DNA of 64,000 nt from Candidatus Competibacteraceae bacterium (GTDB taxonomy: Bacteria; Pseudomonadota; Gammaproteobacteria; Competibacterales; Competibacteraceae): positions 563,950 to 627,949 of the forward strand of contig CP065007.1 in NCBI GenBank assembly GCA_016699715.1. The letters run 5' to 3'. A program made the position numbers and the translations under genes. Shown piece by piece: positions 8,119 to 30,093 of this stretch; the stretch's first letter is position 1, and the number at the start of each line of letters is the position of its first letter. A model generated the notes under the pieces. It was given only the letters and a program-made list of their open reading frames with translations, made no database searches and had not been told where the DNA came from.

Positions 8119-10779
<2,661 letters not shown>

Positions 10780-12575: not shown

Positions 12576-13814
12576 ATGATTGTATGTAGTATGCATGATG
12601 AAGAGGCGATCAAACACAAATTTCAGGTACTTAAACCACTTTTAGACGAGCGGAGCCGTCGATGGTGGGCGGCTTGTGAGGCCGAGGTACTGGGTTGGGG
12701 CGGAATAGCGGTCGTGTCGCAAGCCACGGGAATCTCCCGAACGACGATTGCGGCAGGTTTGCGCGAATACCGACAACCAACAGAGCGGTCGCAAGCGGTG
12801 GCGGTACCCCGGACACGGCAGGCGGGCGGGGGTCGAAAACCGCTCACGCAGCAAGATCCTCATCTGTTGCGCGATTTGGAATCACTGGTCGATCCGGTCA
12901 CGCGGGGTGATCCGCAATCACCCCTGCGGTGGACGTGCAAAAGTACCTACAAACTGGCGAACGAACTCGACGGGATGGGACATCAGGTGGGGGCGCGCAC
13001 GGTTGCACACCTCTTGCGGAAGATGCACTACAGTTTGCAAGCGAATCGGAAGACGCACGAAGGGGGAGATCATCCCGATCGGGATGCCCAGTTCCGTCAT
13101 ATCAATGACCAGACGAAAGCCTTTCAAGTCCGCCATCAGCCGGTAGTGTCCGTCGATACCAAGAAGAAGGAGTTAGTGGGCGACTTCAAAAACGCTGGGC
13201 GAGAATGGCAGCCCAAAGGGACGCCCGAGGCTGTTCGGGTCTACGATTTTCTGGATCCGCAGCTGGGCAAAGCGGTGCCCTATGGGGTCTATGATGTCAC
13301 GACCAATACCGGCTGGGTCACCGTGGGCATGGATCATGATACGGCGGAATTTGCCGTGGAAACCGTGCGACATTGGTGGCAACAAATGGGGATGAGGACT
13401 TATCCGGGCGCTACTGAGTTGTTGATCATTGCTGATGGGGGCGGGAGTAACGGCTCGCGTCTCCGACTGTGGAAAACGCAGTTGCAACAACTGGCGGACG
13501 AGACACAGTTGCGGATCCTGGTCTGTCATTTGCCACCCGGCACCAGCAAGTGGAATAAGATCGAGCATCGACTGTTTGCTTACATTACGCAGAATTGGCG
13601 CGGACGCCCCCTGACGAGCCATGCGGTGATCGTCAATCTCATCGGTAATACCACCACACAGACGGGTCTCTCTATCCATGCCGAACTCGATACTCGCCCC
13701 TACGCGACGGGAATAAAAGTCACCGATGAGGAATTGGCTGCGGTACAGATCGAGCGGGACGCCTTTCACGGTGAATGGAATTACACCATCGTTCCCAGAG
13801 CATCGGGAAAATAA
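12576..13814 (+). CDS. ISAzo13-family (Rhodopirellula-type DDE) transposase
   Basis: 412-aa ORF. LLDERSRRWWAACEAEVLGWGG N-terminus and the hallmark CHLPPGTSKWNKIEHRLFAYITQNWRGRPL segment. The stop codon (13812..13814) lies inside IRR. Confidence 0.9.
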   Translation: MIVCSMHDEEAIKHKFQVLKPLLDERSRRWWAACEAEVLGWGGIAVVSQATGISRTTIAAGLREYRQPTERSQAVAVPRTRQAGGGRKPLTQQDPHLLRDLESLVDPVTRGDPQSPLRWTCKSTYKLANELDGMGHQVGARTVAHLLRKMHYSLQANRKTHEGGDHPDRDAQFRHINDQTKAFQVRHQPVVSVDTKKKELVGDFKNAGREWQPKGTPEAVRVYDFLDPQLGKAVPYGVYDVTTNTGWVTVGMDHDTAEFAVETVRHWWQQMGMRTYPGATELLIIADGGGSNGSRLRLWKTQLQQLADETQLRILVCHLPPGTSKWNKIEHRLFAYITQNWRGRPLTSHAVIVNLIGNTTTQTGLSIHAELDTRPYATGIKVTDEELAAVQIERDAFHGEWNYTIVPRASGK

Positions 13815-13849: not shown

Positions 13850-14683
13850 ATGCTGATCCGGGCCGGTTACGACATTATCTTCGAGCATCCGGCACCGACG
13901 CCGATCATCGTGATGCTCTATCCTCATCCCTCACGCGGACCCTCGATTCGTCGGGGCGACTATCTGCTGGTCGAACCGCCGGTGCAGGTCAGCGAATACA
14001 TCGACGTGTTTGGCAACCGCTGTGGCCGTTTGGTGGCCCCCGCCGGTCCCATCCGCTTTTGGAACGACGCGGTGGTCGAGGATAGCGGTCAGCCGGACCA
14101 GCAGAATCCCGCCGCCGAACAGCACGAAATCCACGACTTGCCGGATGCGACGCTCACCTTCCTGATGCCGAGCCGTTATTGCGAGGTGGATCGGATGGTG
14201 GATCTGGCCTGGCAACTGTTCGGCACCGTGCCGAAGGGTTGGGCGCGAGTACAGGCAATCTGTGACTTCGTGCATAATCACATCATGTTCGACTATATGC
14301 AGGCCCGCAAGACCCGTACCGCCTACGAAACCTATCAAGAGCGAGTCGGCGTCTGTCGTGACTTCACCCACTTGGCGGTCACGTTCTGCCGCTGCTTGAA
14401 CATCCCGGCGCGATATTGCACCGGCTATCTGGGCGACATCGGGGTGCCGGTGACGGGTCCGATGGATTTCAGCGCCTGGTTCGAGGCGTATTTGGGCGGT
14501 CGCTGGTACCCTTTCGATCCGCGTAACAACATACCTCGCATCGGTCGAGTGCTGATGGCCCATGGTCTCGATGCCGCCGATGTGGCGCTGCTGACTTCTT
14601 TCGGCCCCAGCCGGTTGGAACGATTCACGGTATGGACCGACGAGGTGGGCGAGGACGCCCTGTTGCCGGTCCCGAGTCCATAG
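13850..14683 (+). CDS. Transglutaminase-like family protein (second, shorter paralog type)
   Basis: 277-aa ORF. GVCRDFTHLAVTFCR (Cys) and ...MDFSAWFEAYLGGRWYPFDPRN (Asp present; Ser where His is expected). AAGGA RBS 8 nt upstream of the ATG, immediately after the IS end. Confidence 0.85.
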   Translation: MLIRAGYDIIFEHPAPTPIIVMLYPHPSRGPSIRRGDYLLVEPPVQVSEYIDVFGNRCGRLVAPAGPIRFWNDAVVEDSGQPDQQNPAAEQHEIHDLPDATLTFLMPSRYCEVDRMVDLAWQLFGTVPKGWARVQAICDFVHNHIMFDYMQARKTRTAYETYQERVGVCRDFTHLAVTFCRCLNIPARYCTGYLGDIGVPVTGPMDFSAWFEAYLGGRWYPFDPRNNIPRIGRVLMAHGLDAADVALLTSFGPSRLERFTVWTDEVGEDALLPVPSP

Positions 14684-15896: not shown

Positions 15897-18068
15897 CTAC
15901 TGCCGTTGCGGGAGGGAATCCGAGCGCTCGCTGTAGCGGGGAGACCAATGATCACGGCGCTCAATCCGGGCGGTTTCGCCGTTGCCGTTCAGCGCCCGGT
16001 TGGCGCTTTCCAAACCACGTTGCACTTCCGAGCCCACCACCTTGCTGGTGCGGCTGACCCAGCGGGTGAAGGTTTCAGCCGGACCGCGGACATCGTTGGC
16101 CGTGCCCGCCGCCGGTCTGGAGCGGCTCACCAGCTTGATCGGTGGCAGGGTCGGCGGTGCCGGTTGCGAGCGCGATTTCAGTTCGATCGGTGGTAGCGTC
16201 AGCGCCGTGGGTTGCGAGCGCGATTTCAGTTCGATCGGCGGTAGGGTCGGCGACGCTGGTTGTGGCCGTGGCGCGGCGCGGGCGACCGCTGGTTTGGCGG
16301 ACGCGGCGGCGGGTCGGGTCGCGCGCGCAGCAGCGGCGGGGGTCGCTTTGGCGGCGCGGCGGCTGCGGGTGGCCGGTGTGGCTTTGGCGGTGCGGCGGGC
16401 GCGGGTGGAGGTCGCCGCCGTTGGCGCGGTCGGTTTCGATGCCGATTTCGTGACCCGCGAAGCTGGTACTGGCGCTGGTGCGTTTTCTTTGACGGTGGGC
16501 GCGACGGGGGCCGCTTTGACGGTTCTTGCCTGGGTCGGATGTTTGGGCCGAGCCGCCGGAACGGGTTTCGGCGTGGCGGGCGTCACGATCTCGGGTGGAG
16601 CAACGATAACCACCGGCTCGACGGGTTCGACCTCGTTAGGAGCAGCGACGGTTGTTGCCGGTTCGGTTTCGGCATCGGTTTCGGTGGGCGCCGGTGGATC
16701 GGTATTGTCCACGACCGGTGCGGCGTCCACCTCCTGGCGTGATTCCGGCGCGGCGGTGGAGGTCGGTGGTGGTGGCGCGTCGGCGACCTTGGGTGTCGGA
16801 GTCGGGAGTACGGCCGGTTCCGCCGGTGGCGCGGCATCGAATGTCACTGGGGCGCTGGCGACGGCGTCCGGCGACTGCTCGTGATCCTGTCGGATCTGAC
16901 CGGGCGGCTGGAGGAGGAGCGTCCAGGCCAGCGCGCCCGCCAGCCCGAGTATCCCGGCCAGCCCCACCGACCGTCGCAGCCAGGGCGACAAAGTCGGCGC
17001 GGTGGTGTGGCGTGGGTGTCGGCGCGGCGAATCGGCCGACAGCGGCAGGTCCCAGTCCGGTTCCGTGGTTGGGGCGGACAGGATGGGCTGGCCGGCGCGC
17101 GCCGCGTCCAGCACGGCACGGATGGCGGCGCCGTCGGCTGGCCGGTCGGCGGGGTCGCGCGCCAGCAATTGCTCGATCAGGTCCGTCAACAGGGCCGCCG
17201 CGCCGCCGTGCCCGTGTTCCGGCAGCGCCGGTACCGTCCAGAATTCGATGGAACGCCGCAGCCGTTCCCGCTCGTCCCCGGTGATGCCGCCCAGTTGCTC
17301 GCGCCGCTGGCCGGCGCCTTCCTGACCATGCAGGGCCAGCAGCTGACCGAGCCGGCGCTGGGCCTCGGTGGTCGGCTGCTCGGTGATCAGGCTGAACAGC
17401 AGCAGTCCCAGAGCGTAGTAGTCGGCGCGGTAGTCCACCGCGTACTCGCAGCCGCCCGCGCCGTGACCGACCGGCAATATCTGCTCCGGCGCCATGGTGG
17501 CGGGGGTGCCGATGAACGAACGGGTGCTGTCACCGTTCTCACGTTTGAGCGAACCGAAATCGGCCAGCTTGAGCAGATCGCCGTCGTCGCCGACCAGGAT
17601 GTTGCTGAGTTTAAGATCGCGGTAAACGAAGCCAGCACGATGGATAACCTCCAGGCCCGTCAAAATTTGCCTGGCCCAGCCAAGAATGCGGTCCAGTTCC
17701 TGGGGTAGCGCATCGTCCCGTCGCTGCTGTGCCAGCCACTGACCGAGGTTGGCCTGCAATCGCTCCAGCACCAGCACCGGCTGATGGTCGATTTGATCGT
17801 GGTCGAGCAGGGCGACGATATGCCGCGACTGTTCGGCGCTCAGGCCGTCCAGAAAGGTGATCTCCCGCTCCAGGTGCGCGCGCCAGTGACCCTGTAGGGC
17901 GGGATCGGCCTGGGACATCGCCTCGGTGTTGATGAACTTCAGGGCGACGGCGCGTCCACTGGCATCGGTAGCCGCCCAAACTTGGCCGTAGCTGCCGGCG
18001 CCAGGCGAAAGAATGGCGCCGAGCCGGTAACTTCGGCCGTTGATCGCGATTCGTTCACCGCTTTGCAT
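15897..18068 (-). CDS. Hanks-type Ser/Thr protein kinase, single-pass membrane protein with a long Pro/Ala/Lys-rich C-terminal region
   Basis: 723-aa ORF. GAGSYGQVW (G-loop), VALKF (Lys), VYRDLKLSNILV (catalytic loop, Y-R-D), LADFGS, GTPATMAPEQ. TM segment SVGLAGILGLAGALAWTLLL at about residues 370-390, then low-complexity sequence with tandem PPIELKSRSQP repeats. Confidence 0.9.
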   Translation of the reverse strand: MQSGERIAINGRSYRLGAILSPGAGSYGQVWAATDASGRAVALKFINTEAMSQADPALQGHWRAHLEREITFLDGLSAEQSRHIVALLDHDQIDHQPVLVLERLQANLGQWLAQQRRDDALPQELDRILGWARQILTGLEVIHRAGFVYRDLKLSNILVGDDGDLLKLADFGSLKRENGDSTRSFIGTPATMAPEQILPVGHGAGGCEYAVDYRADYYALGLLLFSLITEQPTTEAQRRLGQLLALHGQEGAGQRREQLGGITGDERERLRRSIEFWTVPALPEHGHGGAAALLTDLIEQLLARDPADRPADGAAIRAVLDAARAGQPILSAPTTEPDWDLPLSADSPRRHPRHTTAPTLSPWLRRSVGLAGILGLAGALAWTLLLQPPGQIRQDHEQSPDAVASAPVTFDAAPPAEPAVLPTPTPKVADAPPPPTSTAAPESRQEVDAAPVVDNTDPPAPTETDAETEPATTVAAPNEVEPVEPVVIVAPPEIVTPATPKPVPAARPKHPTQARTVKAAPVAPTVKENAPAPVPASRVTKSASKPTAPTAATSTRARRTAKATPATRSRRAAKATPAAAARATRPAAASAKPAVARAAPRPQPASPTLPPIELKSRSQPTALTLPPIELKSRSQPAPPTLPPIKLVSRSRPAAGTANDVRGPAETFTRWVSRTSKVVGSEVQRGLESANRALNGNGETARIERRDHWSPRYSERSDSLPQRQ
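16137..16275. repeat. 48-bp tandem repeat (~2.9 copies) inside the kinase C-terminal coding region
   Basis: gatcggtggcagggtcggcggtgccggttgcgagcgcgatttcagttc (16137..16184) is repeated with a few substitutions at 16185..16232 and partially from 16233. It encodes TLPPIELKSRSQP.. units on the minus strand. Confidence 0.85.
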
Positions 18069-18169
18069 GGGACGTTCTCCAGGCTGGCCATTCTCGGGGC
18101 AGAATGGTAATCCAGTAAACTAATCGGTGGTCGCTGGGTCAAGTGACTCCGCTATTTATATCATTACAC

Positions 18170-21100
18170 ATGAAATCTGTATCGATACTGAATCGTGCCG
18201 CATCGCGTCGGCTGTTGCCATCCGCCCTGTTCGTGCTGGGCGTGGTTCTTGGCATGGGGGCGTTATGGGCGCAACTGGCGGCGATTTATACCCGGCCGAC
18301 GCCCCTGCCGGCGGCGCCGGCGCGGTTGCCGGCGGGCTTGCCGGAGGAGGCGGTGACCGTGCCCGCCGAAGCGGGATTTCAGTCGATTAGCCTACGCCAA
18401 GGGCTGCTGCTGGTTCGAGGACCGGACCGACCGATCGGCCAGCAGGACCTGGCCTTGTGCGATCAAAGCGTCGATTCCGCCGCTGGACCCGTCATGGCGC
18501 CGCTGTATGTCGGCTGGGACTGGCCACGGCTGCGGGAAGCCGCCGCCGCCAATCGTGCCGCTCGCCCCTCCCGGCCGATGGATGGCGGTTTGAAGAACTC
18601 ATTGCTGGACGATGGTCCCGACGGGGTGGACGTACCGGCTTTCGCCGTGACCGCGGAACCGGCGGGTGGGCCGCCGCGACCGTATGCCGACGCGGGGTCG
18701 TTGCGGGTGACCCTGTATGATCGCCGACCGGTCTTGCTGCTGGCGGACACGGCGGAAACGGGCACGGGGCCGGCGCTGGCATTCCGGCGCGATCTCTGGT
18801 TGCTGTGGAACGCCGGCCCGGTTGTCGCCGGGCACTGGGATCGCGCGCTGCGAATACGATTGCTGGAGGATCGCGTCTGTCCGCTCGGGCGACTGCGGAT
18901 CGAGGTATACGGTCCTTCACCGGAAAATGCCGGGATGGTCGACGCGGAACCGCGAACCGTGCTGTGGTATGCGGGCGACGGCTCGGCGCGGGAATTCCGC
19001 CTGGCGCCTGGCCATTACGCGCCCGCCGCGCCGTCACCGCCTCGCGAGGACGCCGAGCTGTTCGAGCGGTCGCTGGCCGCCGGTTTGCTGCGATCGGGCG
19101 AAGATGGCCGGATTGCCATTGCGCCCGCCGATCTGTCATTGCGCCGCGCGTTCGCCCGTTTTCACCCCGATCTGCTGGCATCCGGCGACGACGAGCACGA
19201 TTGGTTGGATGGACCCTGGAGCGCTGAAACGCAGCGCCTGCATCAGGCACTGCGTTTCAGCGTCACCGGCCGCTACGTACGCCGTCAGGTGGCCACGTTC
19301 AACGCCCGCCAACTGCTGGCGGCGGTGCGCTGGCGGCCGGAGAATGCCGATCCGAGCGGAGATTGGCGGGCGGATTGGAAGGAGGTGCCGCTGGTGTTGA
19401 CCGGGTCCATGCCACTGCTGGCCGAACGCCTGTTCACCGAAGCGCCACATGGTTGGCAAGCCTGGCGGCGGGTGGCGCGCTGGCCGGCACTGGAGCAGCG
19501 GTGGCCGGTGCGGTTTCGGTTAAGCCTGCCGCGACCGGCCCGGTCCGGCGAGCGGCTGGAACTCCTGGTGGTGGGCGGCCCTCCGGCCGTGAGCGGTGCC
19601 GCGGTGCTGGCCAGCGCGCCGCGTTGCGTGGACGCGCGACCCTGCGCCGAGCGGGATGCGCTGGCCCGCTGGTTGCGGCTGGAAATGCGGGCGGGCGCCA
19701 CGGAATTGGAACTGGTTTTTCAACCGCTGCCGGCCGAGGTATTCCCCGGTTTGTACCGTTACGACTTTGCCCATATCCGCCGGGTCGATGGTCGCTTGCG
19801 CTGGTACGATTCGCCGGGGGCCAATGGTGGCGATCCGTCCCGACCGTCGCCGGCCGAGGTGACGCTGCGCGACCGGGAAGGGACTCTGTTGTGGGAAGCC
19901 GGCCAACCGACCGGAGCCGTGTGGGAGCTGGGATTGGCGGCGCTGGTCGGTCTGGGTCCGGTCCATGCCGGTTCGGTGGGCGGCGTGCTGGCGCGGTTGG
20001 GCCGACACGGCGCAACGGTGGTCGAGGCCCGCCTGACCGTGGACTCTCGCTTGCAACAGGCAGCGCGGCGGGCCTTGCTGGAACGGTTGCCGGCCATCAG
20101 TACCACGGCGAGCGAAACCGATGCCCGACAGGAGGAGCGCGTGGCGAGCCTGATCGTGTTGGATGCCGACCGAGGCGATATCCTGGCCGTGGCCGGTAGC
20201 CCGGAACCGCCGGTCGGCATTGTCTGGAGCGATCTATCCACGTTCGTGGCGGCCGTGCGGCCACGCCGCAATCCGCTGTGGGTTCGAGCCTGGCAGCGCG
20301 ACGGCGATGGATTGGACTCGGCCGGCTCGGCTTTTGAGCTGGTCGATGCCTTGTTGCTGGAACGGGAAGCCGGCCATCGCCCGCAATTGGCGGCGGCGCT
20401 GGCGGGTTTGAGCGCCGGCGAGTTGGCGGGATGGCCGCCCGCGTTGGCCTATGGTTTTGCGGCGGACGCGGCGTGTTATCCGGTCCACGCCGGTGGTCTC
20501 GAACCGTCGGCGCTTTGCGATGAACCGGGTGGCGGGCAGACCTTACTGGAACGGATGCGACGCCACGGCGACCAGCGGTATGGCCTGGTTCAGGCGTTGC
20601 GCGATTCCGCGCGCGGCTGGTTCGCCTGGCTGGTGGAGAGCACCGATGCCACGCTGGACGACGCGGGTTCGTCGTGCCTGGCCAGTGCGCGGGCGCTGAC
20701 TCCGGCGGCGTTGCGGGGGGTGCGACCGCTGCTGGATATCATGGCCGAACTTGATTTCGACTCGGCCCAGGATCTGGATGGCGGCTTGTTGCCGGCCGGC
20801 CTGATCGCGGCGAACGATGTTTTGCGAGCCAGCGCGGCGGCACTGGAACCGATGAGCGATCGCGGGCGGGTCCGGCGCGCGGCGCTGGGACAGGGGGTAT
20901 ATGTCACGCCGCTGCAACTCGCCGAACTGGCGGCGGCTATCGCCACCGGCCAGCGGATGCCGCCGAGAGTGTTGGCCGAGCTGAACGGCCAACCGGTGCG
21001 AGATCCGGCGGCAACCGCGCTCGGCATCGCCACCGACCGTATCCGACGGGGCATGCGGCTGGCGCTGAACGAGGAACCGCTCCGTACCGCTTTTGCAGGT

Positions 21101-21346
21101 TTGCGCTTCGATACGATCCGAGCGTCGCTCTATCTGAAGGCTGGCGCCGCATGGTTGGATGCCACGAAAGCGGCGGCGAATGCCTGGCTGGTGGGTTGGC
21201 TGGAGCCGGGTGCGCTACCGGGCGAGAATCGGCGTCTGGCCTTCGCTTGCTGGATCAGTCCCGCCACCGGTCCCGACGGTACGGAATGCGGCGAGTTGAC
21301 GGCGGCCTGGCTGACGGCACTGGCTGGGGCGAAAAGCGATGAGTGA
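18170..21346 (+). CDS. Large membrane-anchored class-B-PBP-like protein with degenerate (SAFE / SAR / KAG) penicillin-binding motifs and a ~630-aa N-terminal region of unknown function
   Basis: Track ORF 18143..21346 (GTG); the first ATG is at 18170. N-terminal TM (LPSALFVLGVVLGMGALWAQLAAI). The C-terminal ~400 aa parallel the transpeptidase domain by eye: VASLIVLDADRGDILAVAGSP, AGSAFELV (SxxK position), LRDSARGWFAWL (SxN position), YVTPLQLAELAAAIATG, LYLKAGAAW (KTG position), NAWLVGW. Confidence 0.7.
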   Translation: MKSVSILNRAASRRLLPSALFVLGVVLGMGALWAQLAAIYTRPTPLPAAPARLPAGLPEEAVTVPAEAGFQSISLRQGLLLVRGPDRPIGQQDLALCDQSVDSAAGPVMAPLYVGWDWPRLREAAAANRAARPSRPMDGGLKNSLLDDGPDGVDVPAFAVTAEPAGGPPRPYADAGSLRVTLYDRRPVLLLADTAETGTGPALAFRRDLWLLWNAGPVVAGHWDRALRIRLLEDRVCPLGRLRIEVYGPSPENAGMVDAEPRTVLWYAGDGSAREFRLAPGHYAPAAPSPPREDAELFERSLAAGLLRSGEDGRIAIAPADLSLRRAFARFHPDLLASGDDEHDWLDGPWSAETQRLHQALRFSVTGRYVRRQVATFNARQLLAAVRWRPENADPSGDWRADWKEVPLVLTGSMPLLAERLFTEAPHGWQAWRRVARWPALEQRWPVRFRLSLPRPARSGERLELLVVGGPPAVSGAAVLASAPRCVDARPCAERDALARWLRLEMRAGATELELVFQPLPAEVFPGLYRYDFAHIRRVDGRLRWYDSPGANGGDPSRPSPAEVTLRDREGTLLWEAGQPTGAVWELGLAALVGLGPVHAGSVGGVLARLGRHGATVVEARLTVDSRLQQAARRALLERLPAISTTASETDARQEERVASLIVLDADRGDILAVAGSPEPPVGIVWSDLSTFVAAVRPRRNPLWVRAWQRDGDGLDSAGSAFELVDALLLEREAGHRPQLAAALAGLSAGELAGWPPALAYGFAADAACYPVHAGGLEPSALCDEPGGGQTLLERMRRHGDQRYGLVQALRDSARGWFAWLVESTDATLDDAGSSCLASARALTPAALRGVRPLLDIMAELDFDSAQDLDGGLLPAGLIAANDVLRASAAALEPMSDRGRVRRAALGQGVYVTPLQLAELAAAIATGQRMPPRVLAELNGQPVRDPAATALGIATDRIRRGMRLALNEEPLRTAFAGLRFDTIRASLYLKAGAAWLDATKAAANAWLVGWLEPGALPGENRRLAFACWISPATGPDGTECGELTAAWLTALAGAKSDE

Positions 21347-23729
21347 ATCTGGACCCCGCGCCGGCGGCGATCCTCCCGTCACGTCCCGCTGGCTGGCGCC
21401 GTGGGTTGACCGGTGGTGGTTGCCATTGCTCTGGTTGCTGCCGGTGTTGGCGATGGGGTGGACAGTGTATCGGGCACCGGCCTGGCTGGAACCCCGGATA
21501 CTGACCGTCACTTTGGAACCTGGCCAAACGGTCATGTTGGGCCGCGAGGCGTTGCGGGCGCCCCAGGCCGACAGCGAACATATTCTGCTGCGACGCGAAG
21601 CCGGCGGCTGGCGGCTGGCCAATATCGCCGCCGGCAAGCAGGTGTTATGGCAACCGGCCCGTGGCGGCGACGAGCGGCCGATCCGGGAATGGCCGCTGCG
21701 GGTGGGAGCGACGTTCGTCGTGGGCGGTCAAGCCTTTAGCGTGCTGGGCGCGGAAAGTGGGCGACTGGTGCTGCAAGGGGGCGGGCGGCGCTGGGATTAC
21801 GATGGTTTTCGTTTGCGCCGGGACGGCCAGCCGCTGCCCGAATGCTACCCGGACTGGCGGAGCCCTTGGCGCGAACGCTTGGCCAAACTGGGATGGTTCG
21901 GCCTGATCCAGCGATCGCTGCGCTTGGGTGGCGGCGTCTATTGCGCCGACCGACTGGGCTTGGTGGGGGTGCCGCTGGATACCGTGGTGCTGGCGCCCGC
22001 CGGCTTGGGCTTCGTGCTGCGCCCCGGCGAGGCCGGACGACCGGACGGTCCGGCGGTGACGGTGGCGGCGGGTGGGCCGGAGGCCGAATCGCTGTGGCGG
22101 CGTTCCGTCCCGCTGGCGGTTGGCGACAACTTGATCGTCGGCCGTACCCGATATCGAGTGCTACGGACCGCGCCGACCTTGGAACTGGCGGTCGTGGCCC
22201 ATGCCCAGCGCTGGCCCGCCGCGATAGCCCCACGTCCGGTCACGCCGCCAGTGGAGGTGCGCTGGCGCCCGGTGGCCTGGCTATGGCCACCCGGTCCGGG
22301 CGCGCTGGTCTGGCCACTGGGCCTGGCGCTGCCTCTGTTGGTGCTGGGGCTGGTCTGGCCGGTTCGGGCGGGTGGCGGGCGGTGGCCGAGCGTGGGCGAC
22401 CGTGGCCGGATCGCGGGCGCGCTGGCGTTGGCCGGGGGGGGACTGGGTCTCTATCTGAGCAGTTTGATCGTTCCGGTGCTGTGGCCCTACTTGTTGGCGT
22501 GGCCGGCGCTGCTGCTTTGGCTGACGGCGGTACGCTCGCCGTGGAGCCTTGGTTTGCTGGTCGTGCTGACGCTGTTGCTGGGCGGTGGGTGGGTCACCCT
22601 GCTGCAATTGGGCGCCGGCGCCGAAGAGTCCGGTTGGCCGCGCTTCGGTGGCGGCGGCGCGGCGCTGGCCGGGGCATTCGGCTGGCTGACGTGGGCCGGG
22701 TGGAGCGTCTGGCGCCGCTGGCGGCCGGCCGGCCGGATGGATTTCCGGCTGGCACGCTGGGGGTCGCTGGCGCTGGGCGGCGCGGCGCTGACCTTGCTGG
22801 CGGCGCAGGCCGCGTTTGGCGACGAGGGCGGCTGGCGCGGTTTCCAGCCGTTCGAACTGGCCAAGCTGGCATTGGTGCTGTTAGCGGCTCATGCTTTGAC
22901 GGTCCGCGTGGAGGCGGGAAGTGCCCGCAAGCTTTTCCGATGGGCGCGTTCCGCGGGACCCGTGCTGTTGTTGCTGGCGGCGAGCGGTTTTGCACTGGTG
23001 GTTCTGCGCGATTTTTCGCCCCTGGTTTTGTTGCTGTTCTGGGTGCTGGCGCTCGTGCTGGCATGGGTGTTCCACCGACGAGTGCATCCTCGGCCGGGTG
23101 GGCGGTGGGGCAGCCGATTGACACTGCTCGTGTTGGTCGGGTTGCTCACGACCGGGGCGATGGGATTGCGCCAATGGCCGGACCGCTTGCCGTTGGGTTT
23201 GCAGCCAATTCGGATTCGAGCCTGGGTGGCGCCGGAACAGTACCCGCACGCCGGCTATCAACTGCGCCGGGCGCTGGAGGTGATTCGGGCCGGTGGCTGG
23301 ACCGGCGCGGTCTGGAGCGATACGGCCAACGGGCGGGTCATGACCGTGCCCCTGGTGGAAAACGACTTCACGCCGACGTTTTTCCTGAACCGCTACGGCG
23401 GTCTGGCGGCGTTGCTGCTGGTGGTCACCCAGACGGCGTTCATTCTGCTGCTGCTGGCGATCGCCGATCGCGCCCTGAGACGGAGCAACCGCAATGACCA
23501 GCGATCGGCGGCGTCTGGCGACTTCGCCTATTTCGCGCTGTGCGGCGGATCGGCCTTGATCGGCGCGCATTTTTTGGTGTCATGGGGCACCAATCTGGGA
23601 TTTCTGCCGGTGATGGGCCAGCCGATGTCGTTGCTCTCGGCCGCCGGCAGCCATCTGGTGCTATTCGTGTTGCCGGTCGTGGCGCTGGCCGTCACGGTCG
23701 AGGAAGGAGATTATGACCACCCACCCTAA
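21339..23729 (+). CDS. SEDS (FtsW/RodA/SpoVE)-like polytopic membrane protein with a ~300-aa N-terminal extension
   Basis: 796-aa ORF overlapping the upstream stop by 8 nt. The C-terminal ~480 aa parallel RodA motifs recalled from E. coli: GFQPFELAKLALVLLAAH (vs FQPSEIAKIA), LRDFSP (vs QPDLGT), GYQLRRALEVIRAGGWTG, VPLVENDFTPTFF (vs LPERHTDFIFAV), GFLPVMGQPMSLLSAAGS (vs GILPVVGVPLPLVSYGGS). The N-terminus has one TM, then two beta-rich modules with weak FHA-like features (VMLGRE...SEHILL; LIVGRTRYRVL). Confidence 0.7.
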   Translation: MSESGPRAGGDPPVTSRWLAPWVDRWWLPLLWLLPVLAMGWTVYRAPAWLEPRILTVTLEPGQTVMLGREALRAPQADSEHILLRREAGGWRLANIAAGKQVLWQPARGGDERPIREWPLRVGATFVVGGQAFSVLGAESGRLVLQGGGRRWDYDGFRLRRDGQPLPECYPDWRSPWRERLAKLGWFGLIQRSLRLGGGVYCADRLGLVGVPLDTVVLAPAGLGFVLRPGEAGRPDGPAVTVAAGGPEAESLWRRSVPLAVGDNLIVGRTRYRVLRTAPTLELAVVAHAQRWPAAIAPRPVTPPVEVRWRPVAWLWPPGPGALVWPLGLALPLLVLGLVWPVRAGGGRWPSVGDRGRIAGALALAGGGLGLYLSSLIVPVLWPYLLAWPALLLWLTAVRSPWSLGLLVVLTLLLGGGWVTLLQLGAGAEESGWPRFGGGGAALAGAFGWLTWAGWSVWRRWRPAGRMDFRLARWGSLALGGAALTLLAAQAAFGDEGGWRGFQPFELAKLALVLLAAHALTVRVEAGSARKLFRWARSAGPVLLLLAASGFALVVLRDFSPLVLLLFWVLALVLAWVFHRRVHPRPGGRWGSRLTLLVLVGLLTTGAMGLRQWPDRLPLGLQPIRIRAWVAPEQYPHAGYQLRRALEVIRAGGWTGAVWSDTANGRVMTVPLVENDFTPTFFLNRYGGLAALLLVVTQTAFILLLLAIADRALRRSNRNDQRSAASGDFAYFALCGGSALIGAHFLVSWGTNLGFLPVMGQPMSLLSAAGSHLVLFVLPVVALAVTVEEGDYDHPP

Positions 23730-25431
23730 TGCCCTGATTGCCTCCGATTACGTCATCTGCGTGACCTTGCGCGCGGTGCCGGACATCTTCAACGCCGAAT
23801 GGTTGTGGGATCGGGTTCGGAGCGGCCAGGAGGGCGTGTTGCTGCTGGAGGCACTCAAGCGCCATCCGCGGCGTATCGCGCGTTCCTCGGGCCAGCGCCA
23901 GGAAACCTACTACAGCCATGTCGTCATCCGGATTTCGGAACGCGATTCCATTCGCGACGAACGGCTGGAGGATGGGTTCGGCCACCGTTTGCTCCTGCGG
24001 GAGCTGCGGCGTCTGCACGAACGGGATCTGGGCGAGCATCTGGCCGAGAACGCGACGGTTCGTTATCGCCTGGAGCCGGACCCGGTGTTGCGTCCGGGCG
24101 AGGTGCAGGCGCTGTTCGGTCGGGCGATCTACCTGCCGGCCGACGACGAAGCGCCGGCCTTTCGGATCGAGGTGACGGCCGATGGGCAGAGCGATTGGCG
24201 GGACGTGGGATCGATCTATCCCGGCCAGCGGCTGACGCTGCTCAACGGCGACCGGCGCGCCAGCAGCTTCGCGGTGGTGGCCTGGCCGTTCCCAGGCAAC
24301 GAGTCGATATTGTTGCTGCGGCAGTCCAGGGCGCCGACCCAGGTGGATGTGGTGGAGGAGCCACCGGCCTGTCTGAATCTGAGCAGCGACGGTCAGGGCG
24401 GCTTCGTGGCGCGCGACCACCGCGGCCGCGGTTTGCGGCTGCGGGTCGTGGCGCTGTCGTCGGCGGGCGTGGAACCCTCGACCTTAGCGGAGCAGGCGCC
24501 GCCGGAATCGCCGGCGCGGCCGGAACAACGGCGCGTTGCCCCGGTCACCGATTTGGGCCAGCCGGCGTCGGGCTCGAAGCCATCCGCCCCGGCGGACGGC
24601 GATTACACGATGATCGATCATTGGGGTCGGCGCGAGCCGGTGTTCGGCATCCCGGTGCACTTCGAGGAACCGTCCGCGCCGCCGGCCGCCATTCTGGAGT
24701 CCTCCCCGTCACCCGCTCCCGCATCGCCGAATGGACTCGACCAGCACACCTGGATTCCCCGGCGACCGGCGGCTTGCTTGCAGGTGGTGGGCCTCGCCTT
24801 GCAGCGCTTGTCGACCTATGCGGCGGCCGGCATCAGCGACTGGCGGATCAGCTTCAACCGCGCGGGCGGGTTGGTGCTGGACAACCATCCCGATGCCGCC
24901 GCCTGGCTGCGGATCGACAGCGCGGATCGGCTGTTTGGCGAGGTCGTGGGGCTGTCGGCGTCGCTGGAACCGCCGAGCGTGTGGCGGCCGTTTCCGGATC
25001 TGGAACTGGAATTCCTCGCCGCGCCATCATCAATGGCGGGGCATTATCTCGGTTGGGTGCGGCTGCCGACGCCGCTGGCGCTGCCGGTCCCGCGCGAGCG
25101 GGCGGTGAGTTTCGGCCGCGGTTCGGAGGCGGACATCGCGCCACGCCTGCTGGCCGATCCGCGTTCCCTGCGCTGGGAGGGCAAACCGAACAAGACGGTT
25201 GGTATCAGCGCTGAATATCTGGGACTGTCGCGTCGCCATTTGCGGGTGCAGGTGCGGCGCGAGGATTGGTGGGTGCAGTTGGAAAGCCAGAATATGTCGG
25301 TTTACCGGCTGGCGCCGTCGGGCGAAGTGCTGGACGTGCTCAGCCCCGGCGTGGACACCGCCGCCGCCGCCAAGCCGGGCGATCTATTGGTGGCGGGGGG
25401 TTACGTACTGGCGCTGGGGGCGGTGGAGTGA
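23713..25431 (+). CDS. FHA-domain protein (C-terminal canonical FHA; N-terminal ~450 aa unknown)
   Basis: 572-aa ORF overlapping the upstream gene by 17 nt. C-terminus: VSFGRGSEADI...LGLSRRHLRVQV...LESQNMSVYRL...GDLLVAGGYVLAL carries the G-R, S-x-x-H and N signature residues of FHA domains. No TM segments. Confidence 0.75.
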   Translation: MTTHPNALIASDYVICVTLRAVPDIFNAEWLWDRVRSGQEGVLLLEALKRHPRRIARSSGQRQETYYSHVVIRISERDSIRDERLEDGFGHRLLLRELRRLHERDLGEHLAENATVRYRLEPDPVLRPGEVQALFGRAIYLPADDEAPAFRIEVTADGQSDWRDVGSIYPGQRLTLLNGDRRASSFAVVAWPFPGNESILLLRQSRAPTQVDVVEEPPACLNLSSDGQGGFVARDHRGRGLRLRVVALSSAGVEPSTLAEQAPPESPARPEQRRVAPVTDLGQPASGSKPSAPADGDYTMIDHWGRREPVFGIPVHFEEPSAPPAAILESSPSPAPASPNGLDQHTWIPRRPAACLQVVGLALQRLSTYAAAGISDWRISFNRAGGLVLDNHPDAAAWLRIDSADRLFGEVVGLSASLEPPSVWRPFPDLELEFLAAPSSMAGHYLGWVRLPTPLALPVPRERAVSFGRGSEADIAPRLLADPRSLRWEGKPNKTVGISAEYLGLSRRHLRVQVRREDWWVQLESQNMSVYRLAPSGEVLDVLSPGVDTAAAAKPGDLLVAGGYVLALGAVE

Positions 25432-25467: not shown

Positions 25468-26904
25468 TCAGGGCGTGCTTACCGAGCGGACTTGCATTTG
25501 CTTCGGCACGAAAATCGGGGACGCGATGACATCGGCCGCGGCGATGGCAAAATTGAGGTTCTGGCCGACTTTCAGCCCCATGGTGGCGACGCCGATGACG
25601 GTGCCATCCCGCAGGATGACCGGTCCGCCACTATTGCCGGGGCTGATCGGCGCGGAAATCTGAATGTAGCGAACCCCATCGATCTCACGCAGCCCGCTGA
25701 TCACGCCGGTCGAAAAGGTACTCTCCAGGCCGTAGGGGTTGCCGATCACGAACACATCCAGCCCGATCAGATCCTGGCTGTAGGTTTGGTTGAGAATAAA
25801 GCTTTCCTTGCTTTTGAGAGCGGTTGCCAACAGGGCCAGGTCCGGTTCCTTGCTGCGTTTGCGGATGCGAGCCACCGATTCCCGGTCGCCGCAGCGGACC
25901 GCCAGGTTTTCGGCTTTATCGATGACATGGTTATTGGTGATGACCAGCCCATCTTTCGAGACCAGCAAACCGCTGCCCAGATTGGCGGTTTTGCCGTTCT
26001 GGAAGGTGACGATCAGGCAGGTAAGCGGCATGCTGCGCCGGTAAATGCGTTGCCCCGGATTGCCGTTATTCACCGCCAGCGCGGCTGGCTCCGCCGCGGC
26101 GGAGCCAGCCGGCTTTGCCAGCGTGGCCAGGCTTTGTTTTAGCGAGCTGAGCAGGCCGCCGGCCGCCGTGGATGGGGGGGTGGTTTGGACTTGGGGAGCG
26201 TGGTTGGAACCGACCGCCGGTCGAACCGGCGCGGCTGGTTGGGGCTGCGGCGGGCTGGCGGGCCAAACGGGCTGGGTGGCGGCGGGCGTGGGTCGCACCG
26301 ACTGCAAGGCTTGCAGCGCGCCGATACGGACGGCATCCGCCGGATCGGCGGTGGCCAGTTGCCGCAGTTGTTCGGTCACCTGTGGCCGATCCTGGGCGAA
26401 ACGGTGGGCGTTGACGAACGCGCCGGTCGCTCGGTGGGCGTCGCCCTGCTGACCGTAGACCTGTCCCAGGGCGAGCCAGGACGCCGAACGGGTCGGTGCC
26501 AGGGACAGCGCATAGACCAATAGTCGTTCCGCTTCCTTGAAACGGTGTAACCGCAGGTAGGTCAGGCCGAGTGCGCCGGCGATTTCCGGATCGGCGGGAT
26601 CGGCGATGAAGGCTTGGCGGAATGCGGCCAGCGCTTCCTTTAGTTGGCCGCCCGTCAACTGTTCCTGGCCCCGTTGCCTGAAAGGTCTGGCCTGCTGGGC
26701 ATCGCCCGGCTCCGGCCGGGGCAGATTTTCCATCTGTTCCCGGAAGATCAGCACGCCGGCTTCTTCGTTGGCGCCGGCCAGGGTGATCATTTGCTGGACG
26801 TAATAATCGATGGTTTCGTATTGACCGGCCGCGACGGGCAAAGCACCAGCCAGCGCCAGCGCCAGCGCCAGCGCCACGCCGCGGATGAATGGCGGAAAAT
26901 TCAT
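25468..26904 (-). CDS. Secreted TPR-repeat / trypsin-like (S1C, DegP-type catalytic domain, no PDZ) serine protease
   Basis: 478-aa ORF. Signal peptide (ALALALALAGALPVAAG), N-terminal TPR module, Pro-rich linker, then LVITNNHVI (His), EPDLALL (Asp), ISPGNSGGPV (Ser). Confidence 0.85.
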   Translation of the reverse strand: MNFPPFIRGVALALALALAGALPVAAGQYETIDYYVQQMITLAGANEEAGVLIFREQMENLPRPEPGDAQQARPFRQRGQEQLTGGQLKEALAAFRQAFIADPADPEIAGALGLTYLRLHRFKEAERLLVYALSLAPTRSASWLALGQVYGQQGDAHRATGAFVNAHRFAQDRPQVTEQLRQLATADPADAVRIGALQALQSVRPTPAATQPVWPASPPQPQPAAPVRPAVGSNHAPQVQTTPPSTAAGGLLSSLKQSLATLAKPAGSAAAEPAALAVNNGNPGQRIYRRSMPLTCLIVTFQNGKTANLGSGLLVSKDGLVITNNHVIDKAENLAVRCGDRESVARIRKRSKEPDLALLATALKSKESFILNQTYSQDLIGLDVFVIGNPYGLESTFSTGVISGLREIDGVRYIQISAPISPGNSGGPVILRDGTVIGVATMGLKVGQNLNFAIAAADVIASPIFVPKQMQVRSVSTP

Positions 26905-27623
26905 GGCGCGCGGCCGGGGCTCGGCGTGCTGTTCATCGGCACGATGCCGCCGGGGTTGGCCGGCAGTGGCGGAACGATGACGGTTTCCGCCGGCAGGTGG
27001 AATAGCCGCAGGGCTTCCAGAGCAGCGTTGCGCAGGCTGTCGGCCGCCTCGTTTTCGGCGATGTTGCGCAGGATTTCCTCGGCGCGCATCTGGTTTTGGG
27101 CGAAGCGGTAGGTGTTGGCCAGGGCGCCCAGCGCGCGGTGGGCGTCGTTTTTCAGGCCGTACACCTGAGCGAGTTGGAACCAGGCCACGGCTCGGGTGGG
27201 CTCGAGAGTGAGCGCCTGCTGCAAGGCGGCTTCCGCTTCGGGAAAACGGCCCATTTTGCGGTAGACCAGCCCCGCGTAGTTGGCGGCGTCGGTATTACCG
27301 GGATCGTCCCGGCTCGCCTGCTGGAACGCCTCCAGCGCCGTGTCCAGCGCATCCTGCCCAAACAAGGTCAGACCACGCTGAAAGGCGGCGCGCGCCGCCG
27401 CCGGGTCGGATGCCGCCGGCCGTGGATTCTGTTCCAACATCCGCTGCATGCTCACCACCCCTTGCTCGTTGTCGGCGGCGGCCATTTCGATCATTTGCTG
27501 GACGAAATAACGGTTTCGTTCGCTATCCTGGGCCAATGCCGCCGGCATCGTGGCCATCCATGCCGCCAGCAACAGCGCCGGCATCCGGCAAGCATCGTTC
27601 ATGCTCCACGTCCCGTGTCTCAC
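26901..27623 (-). CDS. Secreted TPR-repeat protein, paralogous to the N-terminal module of the adjacent protease
   Basis: 240-aa ORF. The stop overlaps the protease start (ATGA). The start is either GTG 27623 (overlapping the upstream stop) or ATG 27602. RYFVQQMIEMAAADNEQGV...LTLEPTRAVAWFQLAQVYGLKNDAHRALGALANTYRFAQ aligns by eye with DYYVQQMITLAGANEEAGV...LSLAPTRSASWLALGQVYGQQGDAHRATGAFVNAHRFAQ of the protease. Confidence 0.75.
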   Translation of the reverse strand: MRHGTWSMNDACRMPALLLAAWMATMPAALAQDSERNRYFVQQMIEMAAADNEQGVVSMQRMLEQNPRPAASDPAAARAAFQRGLTLFGQDALDTALEAFQQASRDDPGNTDAANYAGLVYRKMGRFPEAEAALQQALTLEPTRAVAWFQLAQVYGLKNDAHRALGALANTYRFAQNQMRAEEILRNIAENEAADSLRNAALEALRLFHLPAETVIVPPLPANPGGIVPMNSTPSPGRAP

Positions 27624-28188: not shown

Positions 28189-28863
28189 CTAGATGGACAT
28201 GCTGTCGTAAACCCGCTGCAAGCTGGCGACGTTCTGGCTGGATTGCTGACGGGTTTCCTTCAGTTCCACCAGATTGGACTCCAACTGCCGGGTATATTGA
28301 TCCTGTGGTCCCCGCTGCTGCCGGGATTCCTGATGGACCTGCTCGGCGTCGGCCAGTTGTTTTTCGGTCAGCGAGTTGAGTTGTTTGGCCTTGGCCAGTT
28401 GCTTTTCCACGGCGCTTTTCTGCCGGACGAGGGCGTCCCGCGAGGCTTTGCCCGCCCGATATTGCCGCGCCAGCCGCTGTGATTCGCGGTCCAGTTGAGC
28501 GATTTCCTGGTAGAGCTGGCGGTTCTGGGCGTCGGCCTCTTGAATGAACTCCTGGTTACGGTGGATTTCCGCGACCAGGAAGTCTTCCTCATTGGCGTAC
28601 TGAGCCTTGCGTTCGGCGATGGAACTGCCGATGCCGGCACCGATCAAACCACCGGCCGCGGCCCCGATCAGCGCGCCCCGGCCCCGGTTGTCGCTGACGG
28701 CGGCGCCGAGCAGGCCGCCCACGATGGCCCCAAACACCGCGCCCTGGGCGACGGTCGCCTGCTGGTCGTTCGTGGTGCCGTCGGGGTTGGCGGCACACCC
28801 GGATAAGGCCGCGCCGATCGCAACGGCGGCGAACCATTTCGTGCCTGAATGGTGAACATGCAT
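28189..28863 (-). CDS. Glycine-zipper plus coiled-coil lipoprotein (224 aa)
   Basis: Track ORF 28189..28968, start moved to Met36 (MHVHHSGTKWFAAVAIGAALSGCA; lipobox LSGC). Glycine-zipper stretch GAVFGAIVGGLLGAAV...GALIGAAAGGLIGAGIGS followed by a long coiled-coil-like tail. Confidence 0.7.
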   Translation of the reverse strand: MHVHHSGTKWFAAVAIGAALSGCAANPDGTTNDQQATVAQGAVFGAIVGGLLGAAVSDNRGRGALIGAAAGGLIGAGIGSSIAERKAQYANEEDFLVAEIHRNQEFIQEADAQNRQLYQEIAQLDRESQRLARQYRAGKASRDALVRQKSAVEKQLAKAKQLNSLTEKQLADAEQVHQESRQQRGPQDQYTRQLESNLVELKETRQQSSQNVASLQRVYDSMSI

Positions 28864-28957
28864 AACTGTCTCCCGGCCGTGGTAACGGTTGGTTTTATAT
28901 CCTTTGACAATTCTGAGAGCGGCCGGGTGCGAAATCAACGCATCGCCGGCCGGCCGG

Positions 28958-28986
28958 AGAAAAATCACCGGTCGCGCCGCGACCGG
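28958..28986 (-). terminator. Candidate rho-independent terminator (minus strand) between the TerD-like gene and the lipoprotein operon
   Basis: 8-bp perfect stem CCGGTCGC / GCGACCGG (28968..28975, 28979..28986) with a 3-nt loop. On the minus strand it is followed by TGATTTTTCT. Confidence 0.4.
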
Positions 28987-29145: not shown

Positions 29146-30093
29146 TCAGTATCCGCGATTATTCCAGCTTGTTTGTGGCGAATGTGGCCTGTTCAAGGCG
29201 GGTTCCGAGCCGCTACTTGAGTTTGGGTTCGGATCTGGCGTGGTGGCCGGTTGCTGGACCATGGTTGGCGTGGTGGCCGGCTGTATCATCACCACTGATG
29301 GATGGGGCGCGCACTGGGTAACCAGTGTGGTAATGGCGGTGGTCAGTGAGCCAAAGGCGATGGCCAGCGTGGCGTAGGTCTTGAGTTTTTCGTGTCTGTC
29401 GTGAGGTGGCGCGGGTGCGAGTGGTCCGACCGGGACTGGAGATGACAACGGCACTGAATCCGGTGTGGGGGTCGGTGTAGTCCCCGCCGTGGCTGCCGGG
29501 GTGGGTTTTGGCACCGGCGCGGGCACTGGCGCCGGACGTCTGGTGACAGGCTCGCGCGAATGCTGGGCCGATGTGGCTTCATCGCGGTTTTCCTCGTCCA
29601 TCACGTCGACGCCGAAGGTGCGGGCCAGCACGGCCAAATCATGTTTGAGGCCATCGCCTTTGGCTCGAATTTTCCACAAGTCGCCATAGCGGTAGAGTTC
29701 GGCGATCAGCAGTGAACGACCGCTGACAGGTTCGGCCAGCCGGAATCGAGCGTCGCTGCCCGCCGCCGCCGTCGCTTCGAGCGTGAAATTGTCGACCGAC
29801 TCGAAATGACCGTCATTCAGAGTGGCGGTAAAAACACATTTCCTGATTTCGACGGGCAGGTTATTCAGATTGACCAAAAACAAGGCGTGCTGGGAATCGA
29901 AGCGGATAGCACCATTGGGACTGCTGGGTTGGTTGTAAAACAAAAACCATGGGTCGCTTGGCACTTGTTCGCGGGCGTCAAGCGCAAAACAGGCGAAGTC
30001 AATCTCGCTCGGAGCGGTACGCCAGCTTAGGTGGATTCGGATCTTGCCGGAAGTGGCTAGTGGTGCGTTGGCACCCTTGATCAGTTCTTTCAT
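29146..30093 (-). CDS. TerD-like domain protein with Pro/Thr-rich linker and C-terminal TM anchor
   Basis: Track ORF 29146..30180, start moved to Met30 (MKELIKGANAPL, cat at 30091..30093). EIDFACFALDAREQV...WFLFYNQ...VEIRKCVFTATL...LLIAELYRYGDLWKIRAKGDG follows the TerD beta-sandwich pattern. Then PAPVPAPVPKPTPAATAGTTPTPTP and a hydrophobic segment YATLAIAFGSLTTAITTLV. Confidence 0.65.
   Translation of the reverse strand: MKELIKGANAPLATSGKIRIHLSWRTAPSEIDFACFALDAREQVPSDPWFLFYNQPSSPNGAIRFDSQHALFLVNLNNLPVEIRKCVFTATLNDGHFESVDNFTLEATAAAGSDARFRLAEPVSGRSLLIAELYRYGDLWKIRAKGDGLKHDLAVLARTFGVDVMDEENRDEATSAQHSREPVTRRPAPVPAPVPKPTPAATAGTTPTPTPDSVPLSSPVPVGPLAPAPPHDRHEKLKTYATLAIAFGSLTTAITTLVTQCAPHPSVVMIQPATTPTMVQQPATTPDPNPNSSSGSEPALNRPHSPQTSWNNRGY

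Follow-up and report, generated by a model that had tools for sequence, protein, structure and literature searches.

A putative accessory phospho-regulated SEDS/class B PBP-type module in Candidatus Competibacter, built like the mycobacterial fhaA-pknB operon

The cluster of four genes considered here lies in a 64,000-nucleotide stretch of a Candidatus Competibacter genome (contig CP065007.1, positions 563,950 to 627,949; this whole stretch is called the window). A Hanks-type Ser/Thr kinase gene on the minus strand diverges from three plus-strand genes, which encode a protein similar to class B penicillin-binding proteins (bPBP), a SEDS-like protein and p4, a soluble protein with a predicted C-terminal FHA fold. 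The cluster is interpreted, with a probability of about 0.6, as an accessory, phospho-regulated module for the synthesis of a cell-envelope glycan, built like the mycobacterial fhaA...rodA-pbpA-pknAB operon and belonging to a separate, very divergent lineage. What is new is a rare, undescribed proteobacterial version of the actinobacterial kinase/FHA/SEDS/bPBP theme.

Reading of the sequence bore out the layout given in a preliminary description of this DNA, made from the letters alone: four open reading frames (ORFs), a divergent gap of about 100 bp and overlaps of 8 and 17 nt. The four ORFs were verified at 15897..18068 on the minus strand (the bitopic kinase, 723 amino acids, aa) and, on the plus strand, at 18170..21346 (the bitopic PBP-like protein, 1058 aa), 21339..23729 (the SEDS-like protein, 796 aa) and 23713..25431 (p4, a putative soluble FhaA-like adaptor of 572 aa). 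The gammaproteobacterial background proposed for them agrees with the naming of their homologues as Candidatus Competibacter or Competibacteraceae. The length of 1067 aa first ascribed to the PBP-like protein is that of the ORF opened by an alternative start, GTG 18143; the public gene call of an identical protein begins at ATG 18170 and gives 1058 aa, and residues are numbered here from this ATG. An overlap of 8 nt (ATGAGTGA) joins the PBP-like gene to the SEDS-like gene, and one of 17 nt joins the latter to the p4 gene, with GGAGA shortly before the p4 ATG; these overlaps are counted in support of a translational coupling of the three genes. Both promoters are presumably located in the 101-bp intergenic region between the kinase and PBP-like genes (18069..18169); a consensus scan of this region gave none, and the promoter/terminator scan was uninformative. 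The GC content of the cluster is 0.68–0.69 versus 0.54–0.63 in the flanks.

Concerning the SEDS-like protein, both sequence models and structure comparison agree with the family assignment made earlier. FTSW_RODA_SPOVE (PF01098) gave 66.8 bits against a cut-off of 26.4, the match covering only residues 502–778. An AlphaFold model built on 30 homologues (pLDDT 80, pTM 0.80) was compared by Foldseek, and the best matches were FtsW (8p1u, 8bh1) and RodA (8tj3), with template modelling (TM) scores of 0.67–0.69 and probability 1.0; the O-antigen ligase WaaL was the fourth match, with a TM score of 0.45. The NCBIfam equivalogs were scored much lower than their cut-offs: 62.4 bits for rodA_shape (cut-off 336.7), 58.6 for ftsW (337.5) and 30 for spoVE (449). 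So, with scores below the equivalog cut-offs and no mrd or dcw context among the annotated ORFs of the window, the protein does not classify as a housekeeping RodA/FtsW orthologue.

The core motifs of the SEDS-like protein are QPFELAK (22845..22865), RDFSP (23007..23021), ENDF (23358..23369, its Asp being D676) and, towards the C-terminus, GQPMSLLSAAGSH (23616..23654). When the family profile was aligned to Pseudomonas aeruginosa FtsW, QPfeLtK fell on QPSEIAK, rDFSP on PDFGA, the Asp of (N/D)DF (D676) on the Asp of HTDF in extracellular loop 4 (ECL4), and GQPMslLSaaGSH on GLTLPFLSYGGSS. Since the motif columns do not vary among 30 family members, nor among nine very distant copies, the polymerase machinery looks intact; a lipid II glycosyltransferase activity is presumed.

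The model of the SEDS-like protein displays 14 helices in all: an N-terminal helix (27–45), a beta-rich region (49–311) and then 13 helices, of which three are extra helices following the beta-rich domain and ten form the core from about residue 400. The first helix, rich in Trp, was missed by a Kyte-Doolittle scan and is taken from the AlphaFold model. Ten helices separate the beta-rich region from the periplasmic ECL4, the loop 340–351 is Arg-rich, all the other loops obey the positive-inside rule, and C169 and C202 do not vary across the 30-member alignment and are mostly present outside it as well. The helix count, the Arg-rich loop, the positive-inside rule and the conserved cysteines place residues 46–318 (about 270 aa, beta-rich) in the probable periplasmic part of the protein, and therefore this extension should not be able to read the marks of the kinase directly. 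No recognisable sequence relative of this domain was found with Pfam at E = 10 or by comparison of its profile to Protein Data Bank (PDB) sequences. An LGRE..H..LRR..GGW.L.N pattern had prompted consideration of a cytoplasmic FHA domain fused to the SEDS-like protein. This was rejected, as hhalign found no significant similarity to the p4 FHA profile, only a weak structural match to FHA domains was obtained (probability 0.66), and the helix count and positive-inside rule put the domain in the periplasm.

The PBP-like protein contains a transmembrane anchor (residues 14–41), a variable periplasmic region (42–284), a conserved middle domain named after its REDAELF motif (285–565; nt 19022..19864) and a degenerate transpeptidase domain (about 615–1058). 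Its homology to PBPs, proposed in the preliminary description, holds by profile comparison: the Transpeptidase model (PF00905) gave a marginal 22.7 bits against a cut-off of 22.1, PF00905 is a precomputed match in many of its homologues, and the family profile matched 6pl5_B, the PBP2 of the Thermus thermophilus RodA-PBP2 complex (1e-7), and MrdA (7kis, 3e-5). The pbp2_mrdA equivalog scored 36 bits, its cut-off being 455. No match to the pedestal model (PBP dimerisation, PF03717) was obtained even at E = 10, and the conserved 285–565 domain lies at the place where a pedestal would be expected.

In the alignment of the family profile to PBP2, AGSAFKL falls on PGSTFKL (the SxxK motif) and KTGTA on KTGTA. 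In the window, SxxK, SxN and KTG are replaced by SAFE (20327..20338), SAR (within 20603..20623) and KAG (21137..21145), with loss of the catalytic Lys, Asn and Thr. The motifs were tallied in 25 full-length copies from Competibacteraceae-type loci and 13 distant metagenomic copies. All three are intact in 14 of the 25 and in every one of the 13; the triple change is found in eight of the 25, which make up the clade of the window, one more (in locus L047) has just the Lys-to-Glu change, and the serine is also lost in two. Loss of the motifs is derived in this clade and not a trait of the family. The earlier claim of a catalytically dead PBP partner therefore stands for this genome and fails for the family. 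In 14 other Competibacteraceae loci the protein is cut to the transmembrane anchor plus residues from about 285 to 390 or 285 to 565, as in a 336-aa ORF of Ca. Competibacter denitrificans, and (R/T)ED..LF, which no other motif of the protein equals in conservation, lies in the retained segment. An intact transpeptidase appears to be ancestral, and to have been later point-inactivated, truncated or lost. The dN/dS ratio of the transpeptidase domain, estimated between the window and four clade members, was 0.22–0.29, like that of the rest of the cluster. By this measure the degenerate domain is not decaying and is still under purifying selection, as are all the parts of the module.

The assignment of the minus-strand gene as a Hanks kinase was confirmed by a Pkinase match at residues 23–311 (nt 17136..18002; 2.7e-33) and by a complete set of catalytic motifs (the G-loop GAGSYGQV, VALK, YRDLKLSN, DFG and APE). 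Hydropathy predicts a single transmembrane segment (residues 367–388), followed by an extracytoplasmic, Pro/Ala-rich tail of about 335 aa, without PASTA domains. The tail contains three 16-aa repeats of the LPPIELKSRSQP type (nt 16137..16262), which derive from a 48-bp tandem repeat of 2.6 copies with 83% identity. In Ca. Competibacter denitrificans the kinase has 935 aa and a much longer tail. The kinase gene divergently adjoins the plus-strand genes in most Competibacteraceae loci.

The fourth protein, p4, has no transmembrane segment. It is composed of a globular N-terminal region (residues 7–250), a disordered linker (251–349), a beta domain (350–460) and a C-terminal FHA fold (about 460–572). 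In the AlphaFold model, built on 47 homologues, pLDDT was 77 overall and mostly above 90 in the C-terminal domain. The top 38 Foldseek matches were all FHA domains or FHA-domain proteins, including CT664, OdhI, GarA, DgcB and the FhaA protein Rv0020c, most of them with probability 1.0 and the best with a target TM score of 0.6–0.7; a weak match was seen with the N-terminal domain of Rv0020c (2lc0; probability 0.97, 73 columns). The residues G468 and R469 (25111..25125), S506, R507 and H509 (25225..25239) and N527 are present, G468-R469 and S506 being nearly invariant in 66 relatives of 20–45% identity, while His509 and Asn527 are lost in distant members. The domain may bind phosphothreonine. 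Within the linker, WGRREP and T346-x-x-P349 are conserved, and T346 is a candidate phospho-acceptor. No Pfam domains were found in 66 diverse members, and p4 is an undescribed protein family without Pfam or NCBIfam model.

The distribution of the module was followed through p4. A HMMER pass of its profile over 1.84 billion representative proteins gave 230 matches at E ≤ 1e-3 and 159 at E ≤ 1e-10, and a scan of one genome per species gave 277 relatives. The best 80 of these 277 belong to Competibacteraceae and Oxalobacteraceae (Duganella, Pseudoduganella, Massilia, Rugamonas); the closest species genome among the relatives is that of Ca. Competibacter phosphatis (93%), and the relatives of the plus-strand proteins are named Competibacter, Contendobacter or Competibacteraceae. 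The neighbourhoods were mapped in fetched loci of relatives, designated with L numbers, and the module genes proved to be linked in three gene orders, often with a kinase gene, a PP2C-like phosphatase gene or both adjacent. Type A, of Competibacteraceae, is that of the window, with the kinase gene on the minus strand and the PBP-like, SEDS-like and p4 genes on the plus strand; it is often trailed, on the minus strand, by genes for a protease with TPR repeats (TPR-protease), a TPR protein and a glycine-zipper (Gly-zipper) protein. Type B, seen in all 19 Oxalobacteraceae loci, consists of tightly packed genes on one strand, in the order Gly-zipper protein, soluble kinase, SEDS-like, p4, SH3_3 membrane protein, weak PP2C-like protein and a second FHA protein, which is membrane-anchored (PF00498, 25.6 bits). 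Type C occurs on metagenomic contigs of unassigned taxa, and its order, p4, PBP-like, SEDS-like, was found in the 11 of 11 loci with enough downstream DNA, in some of them with a kinase or PP2C-like gene beside p4. A kinase-p4 pair was found by itself in L037, L038 and L043, and p4 alone in L022. The linkage survives rearrangement at 25–35% identity, which is good evidence that p4 cooperates with the SEDS-like protein and, in the ancestral state, with an active bPBP; the kinase/phosphatase layer appears to be a frequent add-on.

Considering these results, the following mechanism is proposed. The 14-helix SEDS-like protein would be the catalytic heart of the module, polymerising a lipid-linked precursor of the lipid-II type, and would work with the bitopic PBP-like protein encoded just upstream, which in this clade would act as a scaffold or activator and not as a cross-linker. 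The membrane kinase would phosphorylate cytoplasmic threonines, either that of the T346-x-x-P site of the p4 linker or some in the kinase itself, and the FHA domain of p4 would bind the phosphothreonine, coupling kinase activity to the assembly or the activity of the polymerase. The substrate, the direction of the regulation, the phosphorylation sites and the physical contacts of this scheme are what we infer, and control by the kinase is suggested by gene linkage only. With the extension of the SEDS-like protein probably in the periplasm, short tails and loops would be all that the membrane proteins offer on the cytoplasmic side.

Several observations weigh against this reading. The FHA call for p4 comes from the predicted structure only: the FHA sequence model (PF00498) gave no match at E up to 10, either with the whole of p4 or with its last 109 residues, NCBIfam gave none either, and comparison of the family profile with PDB sequences found no FHA domain, its weak matches to MalK-type ATPases being taken as chance. 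So, of the canonical FHA domain announced in the preliminary description, the GR...SRRH...N residues and the fold are retained and the recognition by a sequence model is not. That p4 is linked directly to the polymerase is a speculation, because the SEDS-like protein exposes very little to the cytoplasm. The window encodes no PP2C gene, as already stated in the preliminary description, and the kinase gene is missing beside many distant copies of the module, so kinase control may not be universal. In Oxalobacteraceae loci there is no PBP-like gene nearby, which is a misfit with the rule that SEDS polymerases need a bPBP. No canonical SEDS or PBP genes were seen in the fetched flanks of module loci, which comprise flanking DNA only. 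Finally, caspase/FGE-sulfatase and TPR-protease genes recur nearby and hint at other biology.

There is also a bolder and less probable variant of the proposal: the SEDS-like protein may be a bPBP-independent polymerase, in which the fused periplasmic domain and a minimal membrane-anchored partner with the REDxxLF motif replace the pedestal as activator, the glycan is not cross-linked by a dedicated transpeptidase, and the kinase and p4 act as the switch. The REDxxLF domain is all that is left of the PBP-like gene in many genomes. If true, it would be the first SEDS system of Gram-negative bacteria that is phospho-regulated and bPBP-independent. It is rather unlikely, in turn, that the SEDS-like protein makes or ligates another undecaprenyl-linked glycan (of envelope, capsule or matrix), with the PBP-like protein and the periplasmic domains handling the substrate and the kinase and FHA protein setting the time. 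Both Competibacteraceae and Oxalobacteraceae form aggregates or biofilms, the transpeptidase partner can be dispensed with (point-inactivated, cut to the transmembrane segment plus 100–280 aa, or absent), WaaL is the fourth structural match, and the large periplasmic domain of the SEDS-like protein is unique and without known relatives. However, the motifs specific to SEDS proteins, including the ECL4 Asp, are all kept, FtsW and RodA fit far better than WaaL (0.67–0.69 versus 0.45), and the DD-transpeptidase site intact in 13 of 13 distant copies implies a peptide-bearing substrate; to this can be added the gene for a presumed peptidoglycan peptidase next door to the module in L089.

An envelope response to conflict, stress or programmed death, involving caspase/FGE-sulfatase sensors, TPR-protease, glycine-zipper and TerD proteins, is regarded as improbable. 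Genes for caspase- or kinase-FGE-sulfatase proteins do lie within a few kb in all three architectures, one caspase-FGE-sulfatase gene being beside a diversity-generating retroelement; the TPR-protease, TPR protein and Gly-zipper genes are downstream in many Competibacteraceae loci, and the window itself has an FGE-sulfatase fragment (30174..30479) and an upstream ISAZ013 transposase. But the neighbours vary, Contendobacter-type loci lacking the protease set and several distant loci having unrelated neighbours, and the caspase/FGE-sulfatase families may be abundant in these genomes, so that adjacency could be due to chance. A defence system was considered and rejected, as the similarity detected by PADLOC was limited to generic kinase and protease matches, with none for the three plus-strand proteins. 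That the cluster is an ordinary elongasome or divisome pair (RodA-PBP2 or FtsW-FtsI), strongly diverged, is very improbable, despite the SEDS and bPBP homology and the lack of canonical copies in the fetched flanks: equivalog scores are about 60 versus about 337 bits for the SEDS-like protein and 36 versus 455 for the PBP-like protein, the transpeptidase has lost its motifs, the annotated ORFs of the window include no mre, mur or fts genes, the distribution is limited and patchy, and truncated or frameshifted copies occur in several related genomes. Low scores, absence of dcw/mre neighbours and rarity agree with the accessory nature, distinct from mrdAB and ftsWI, that had been attributed to the module. 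Hardly credible at all is that kinase and p4 form a threonine-phosphorylation pair of a type VI secretion system (T6SS; PpkA/Fha1 type) placed by accident beside wall genes. This idea comes from L037, where a kinase-p4 pair without SEDS and PBP genes adjoins a fused VipA-VipB sheath gene; it is a single case, the sheath gene having no counterpart in the window or the other fetched loci, the FHA domain of p4 is C-terminal, and p4 is linked to the SEDS-like and PBP-like genes in three gene orders. No T6SS families turned up among the window ORFs scanned, and the location is not that of a PpkA/PppA/Fha1 set.

The accessory module of our preferred reading has its closest known system in the fhaA-fhaB-pstP-rodA-pbpA-pknA-pknB operon of Mycobacteriales (10.1101/2024.08.13.607006). 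Both have a SEDS polymerase, a class B PBP, a Hanks kinase and a soluble FHA protein, and the layout of p4, in which a long disordered linker joins a globular N-terminus to a C-terminal FHA domain, is like that of mycobacterial FhaA. The parallel, already drawn in the preliminary description, holds and is strengthened by relatives having a PP2C-like gene and a second FHA protein: a PP2C-like phosphatase, as in the actinobacterial operon, is found in Oxalobacteraceae and in some metagenomic versions, and the former have a second FHA protein as well, anchored in the membrane. Compared with the window, the Oxalobacteraceae version has these two in addition and lacks the bPBP. The differences are also considerable. 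In contrast to the actinobacterial operon, the module is found in Proteobacteria; the window has one kinase, without PASTA domains, no PP2C and no second FHA protein; a periplasmic domain of 270 aa and four additional helices set the SEDS-like protein apart; where a recognisable pedestal would be expected, the PBP-like protein carries about 600 aa of unknown periplasmic sequence, and its active site is degenerate here; p4 matches no FhaA or FHA sequence model; and the module is rare and patchy and not a conserved core operon. The window does not hold the full gene set of an fhaA...pknB-type operon, and none of its components reaches orthologue-level scores.

When the comparison is made with RodA-PBP2 and FtsW-FtsI pairs (PDB 6pl5, 8tj3, 8bh1, 8p1u), the module is alike in the adjacency of the genes, whose coding regions overlap here, in the SEDS core fold and motifs, and in the membrane anchor and transpeptidase fold of the bPBP. 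It differs in scores far below the equivalogs, in the extra domains, in a transpeptidase that is inactive here and in the absence of dcw/mre context. SpoVE-SpoVD is the sporulation-specific SEDS-bPBP pair of Firmicutes. It shares with the module the concept of a third, specialised pair for a particular envelope structure; unlike it, the host of the module is Gram-negative and non-sporulating, the regulation is different, and there is no orthology (spoVE, 30 versus 449 bits).

For Actinomycetota and Pedobacter, with examples in Senegalimassilia, Streptomyces and Pedobacter, a 2025 survey reports non-canonical bPBP/SEDS genes that have genes for Ser/Thr kinases and phosphatases on their flanks, in genomes that keep the canonical pairs (PMC12516126). 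The SEDS/bPBP-type genes of the module likewise adjoin Ser/Thr kinase or phosphatase genes, and thus the general theme was already known; the architectures described there are fusions, unlike the three-gene module. A term search of the survey found neither "FHA" nor "Oxalobacter", "Competibacter" not being among the terms searched, and none of the passages that the search returned deals with this family or with a degenerate transpeptidase partner. Literature searches gave no description of the module in proteobacteria.

From a functional viewpoint, the module would bring the kinase/FHA logic of wall synthesis to Proteobacteria, in a separate lineage and with new domains. SEDS-bPBP pairs are core wall synthases and major antibiotic targets, their activation is an active question, and it is chiefly in Actinobacteria and Firmicutes that their regulation by Hanks kinases and FHA proteins has been established. 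The natural series of partners, with the transpeptidase intact, point-inactivated but maintained, truncated or absent, lends itself to testing what a bPBP adds to a SEDS polymerase besides cross-linking, and the culturable carriers (Duganella, Massilia, Pseudoduganella) make the module directly testable.

Some of the fetched loci deserve separate mention. In L006 (233..5864) and L005 (4125..5864), where the module is 45–48% identical, a caspase-FGE-sulfatase gene replaces the kinase upstream of the PBP-like gene, and the PBP-like and SEDS-like genes are separated by a gene for an ECF-type sigma factor; L006 also has, beside the caspase-FGE-sulfatase gene, a diversity-generating retroelement (bAvd plus reverse transcriptase). 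L116 (8277..20749), a low-GC (0.50) metagenomic contig, has kinase, p4 and PP2C-like genes, then genes for WD40-caspase and caspase-FGE-sulfatase proteins, and a PBP-like gene 3.5 kb further along, which makes it a further instance of caspase-family genes lying within the module. The kinase-p4 pair of L037 and the adjoining sheath gene, which encodes 821 aa, lie at 870..7607. In L089, which has a distant version of the module, a Peptidase_M15/DUF882 gene (9096..9677; 6e-50), which we take to encode a peptidoglycan peptidase, is directly upstream of p4. Three contigs of metagenome-assembled genomes, L058 (4911..7141), L059 (9003..9828) and L061 (2335..4682), have two overlapping ORFs in place of a single SEDS-like gene, these being either frameshift pseudogenes or assembly errors.

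Next to the cluster in the window, and convergent to p4, the minus strand encodes an exported protein with TPR and a trypsin-like (HtrA-type) serine protease domain (25468..26904; Trypsin_2, 3.8e-25, and TPR matches), a TPR protein (26901..27623; TPR matches), whose gene overlaps that of the protease and has the same distribution, and a glycine-zipper membrane protein (28189..28968; Gly-zipper_Omp, 1.7e-8). The TPR-protease gene occupies the same position in L008-L013, L023, L036, L040, L042, L046 and L058, and a homologue is further downstream in L029 and L044; it is absent from Contendobacter-type loci, being found beside the module in part of Competibacteraceae only. The 140-aa protein at the start of the Oxalobacteraceae operon in L001 is also of Gly-zipper type and weakly similar to the 28189..28968 product. 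Further on, a TerD-domain gene (29146..30180) adjoins the short plus-strand stretch 30174..30479, which is 31% identical to the FGE-sulfatase domain of a caspase-FGE-sulfatase protein; in related Competibacter loci, a full caspase/FGE-sulfatase gene lies a few hundred bp past the Gly-zipper gene, and what is present here is a fragment.

Ordinary chromosomal genes surround the cluster, namely those for pyruvate dehydrogenase E1/E2/E3, for an ABC transporter and for ubiH-type monooxygenases, along with a chemosensory cluster, pepP and 6S RNA. No mre, mrd, mur or fts (dcw) genes were found among the annotated ORFs of the window. Upstream, a low-GC patch contains an ISAZ013-family DDE transposase gene (12576..13814, plus strand; 9e-146) flanked by two transglutaminase-like genes (11024..11881 and 13850..14683). 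The chemosensory cluster (43083..55418, minus strand), partly in low-GC DNA (0.48–0.52), encodes a hybrid CheA-like kinase of 1324 aa with Hpt, CheW and receiver domains, together with a methyl-accepting chemotaxis protein, a dCache protein, CheW, a receiver protein and two periplasmic binding proteins. Downstream of the pepP and ubiH-type monooxygenase genes, 6S RNA (ssrS) is found at 63207..63396 on the plus strand, with 93.5 bits.

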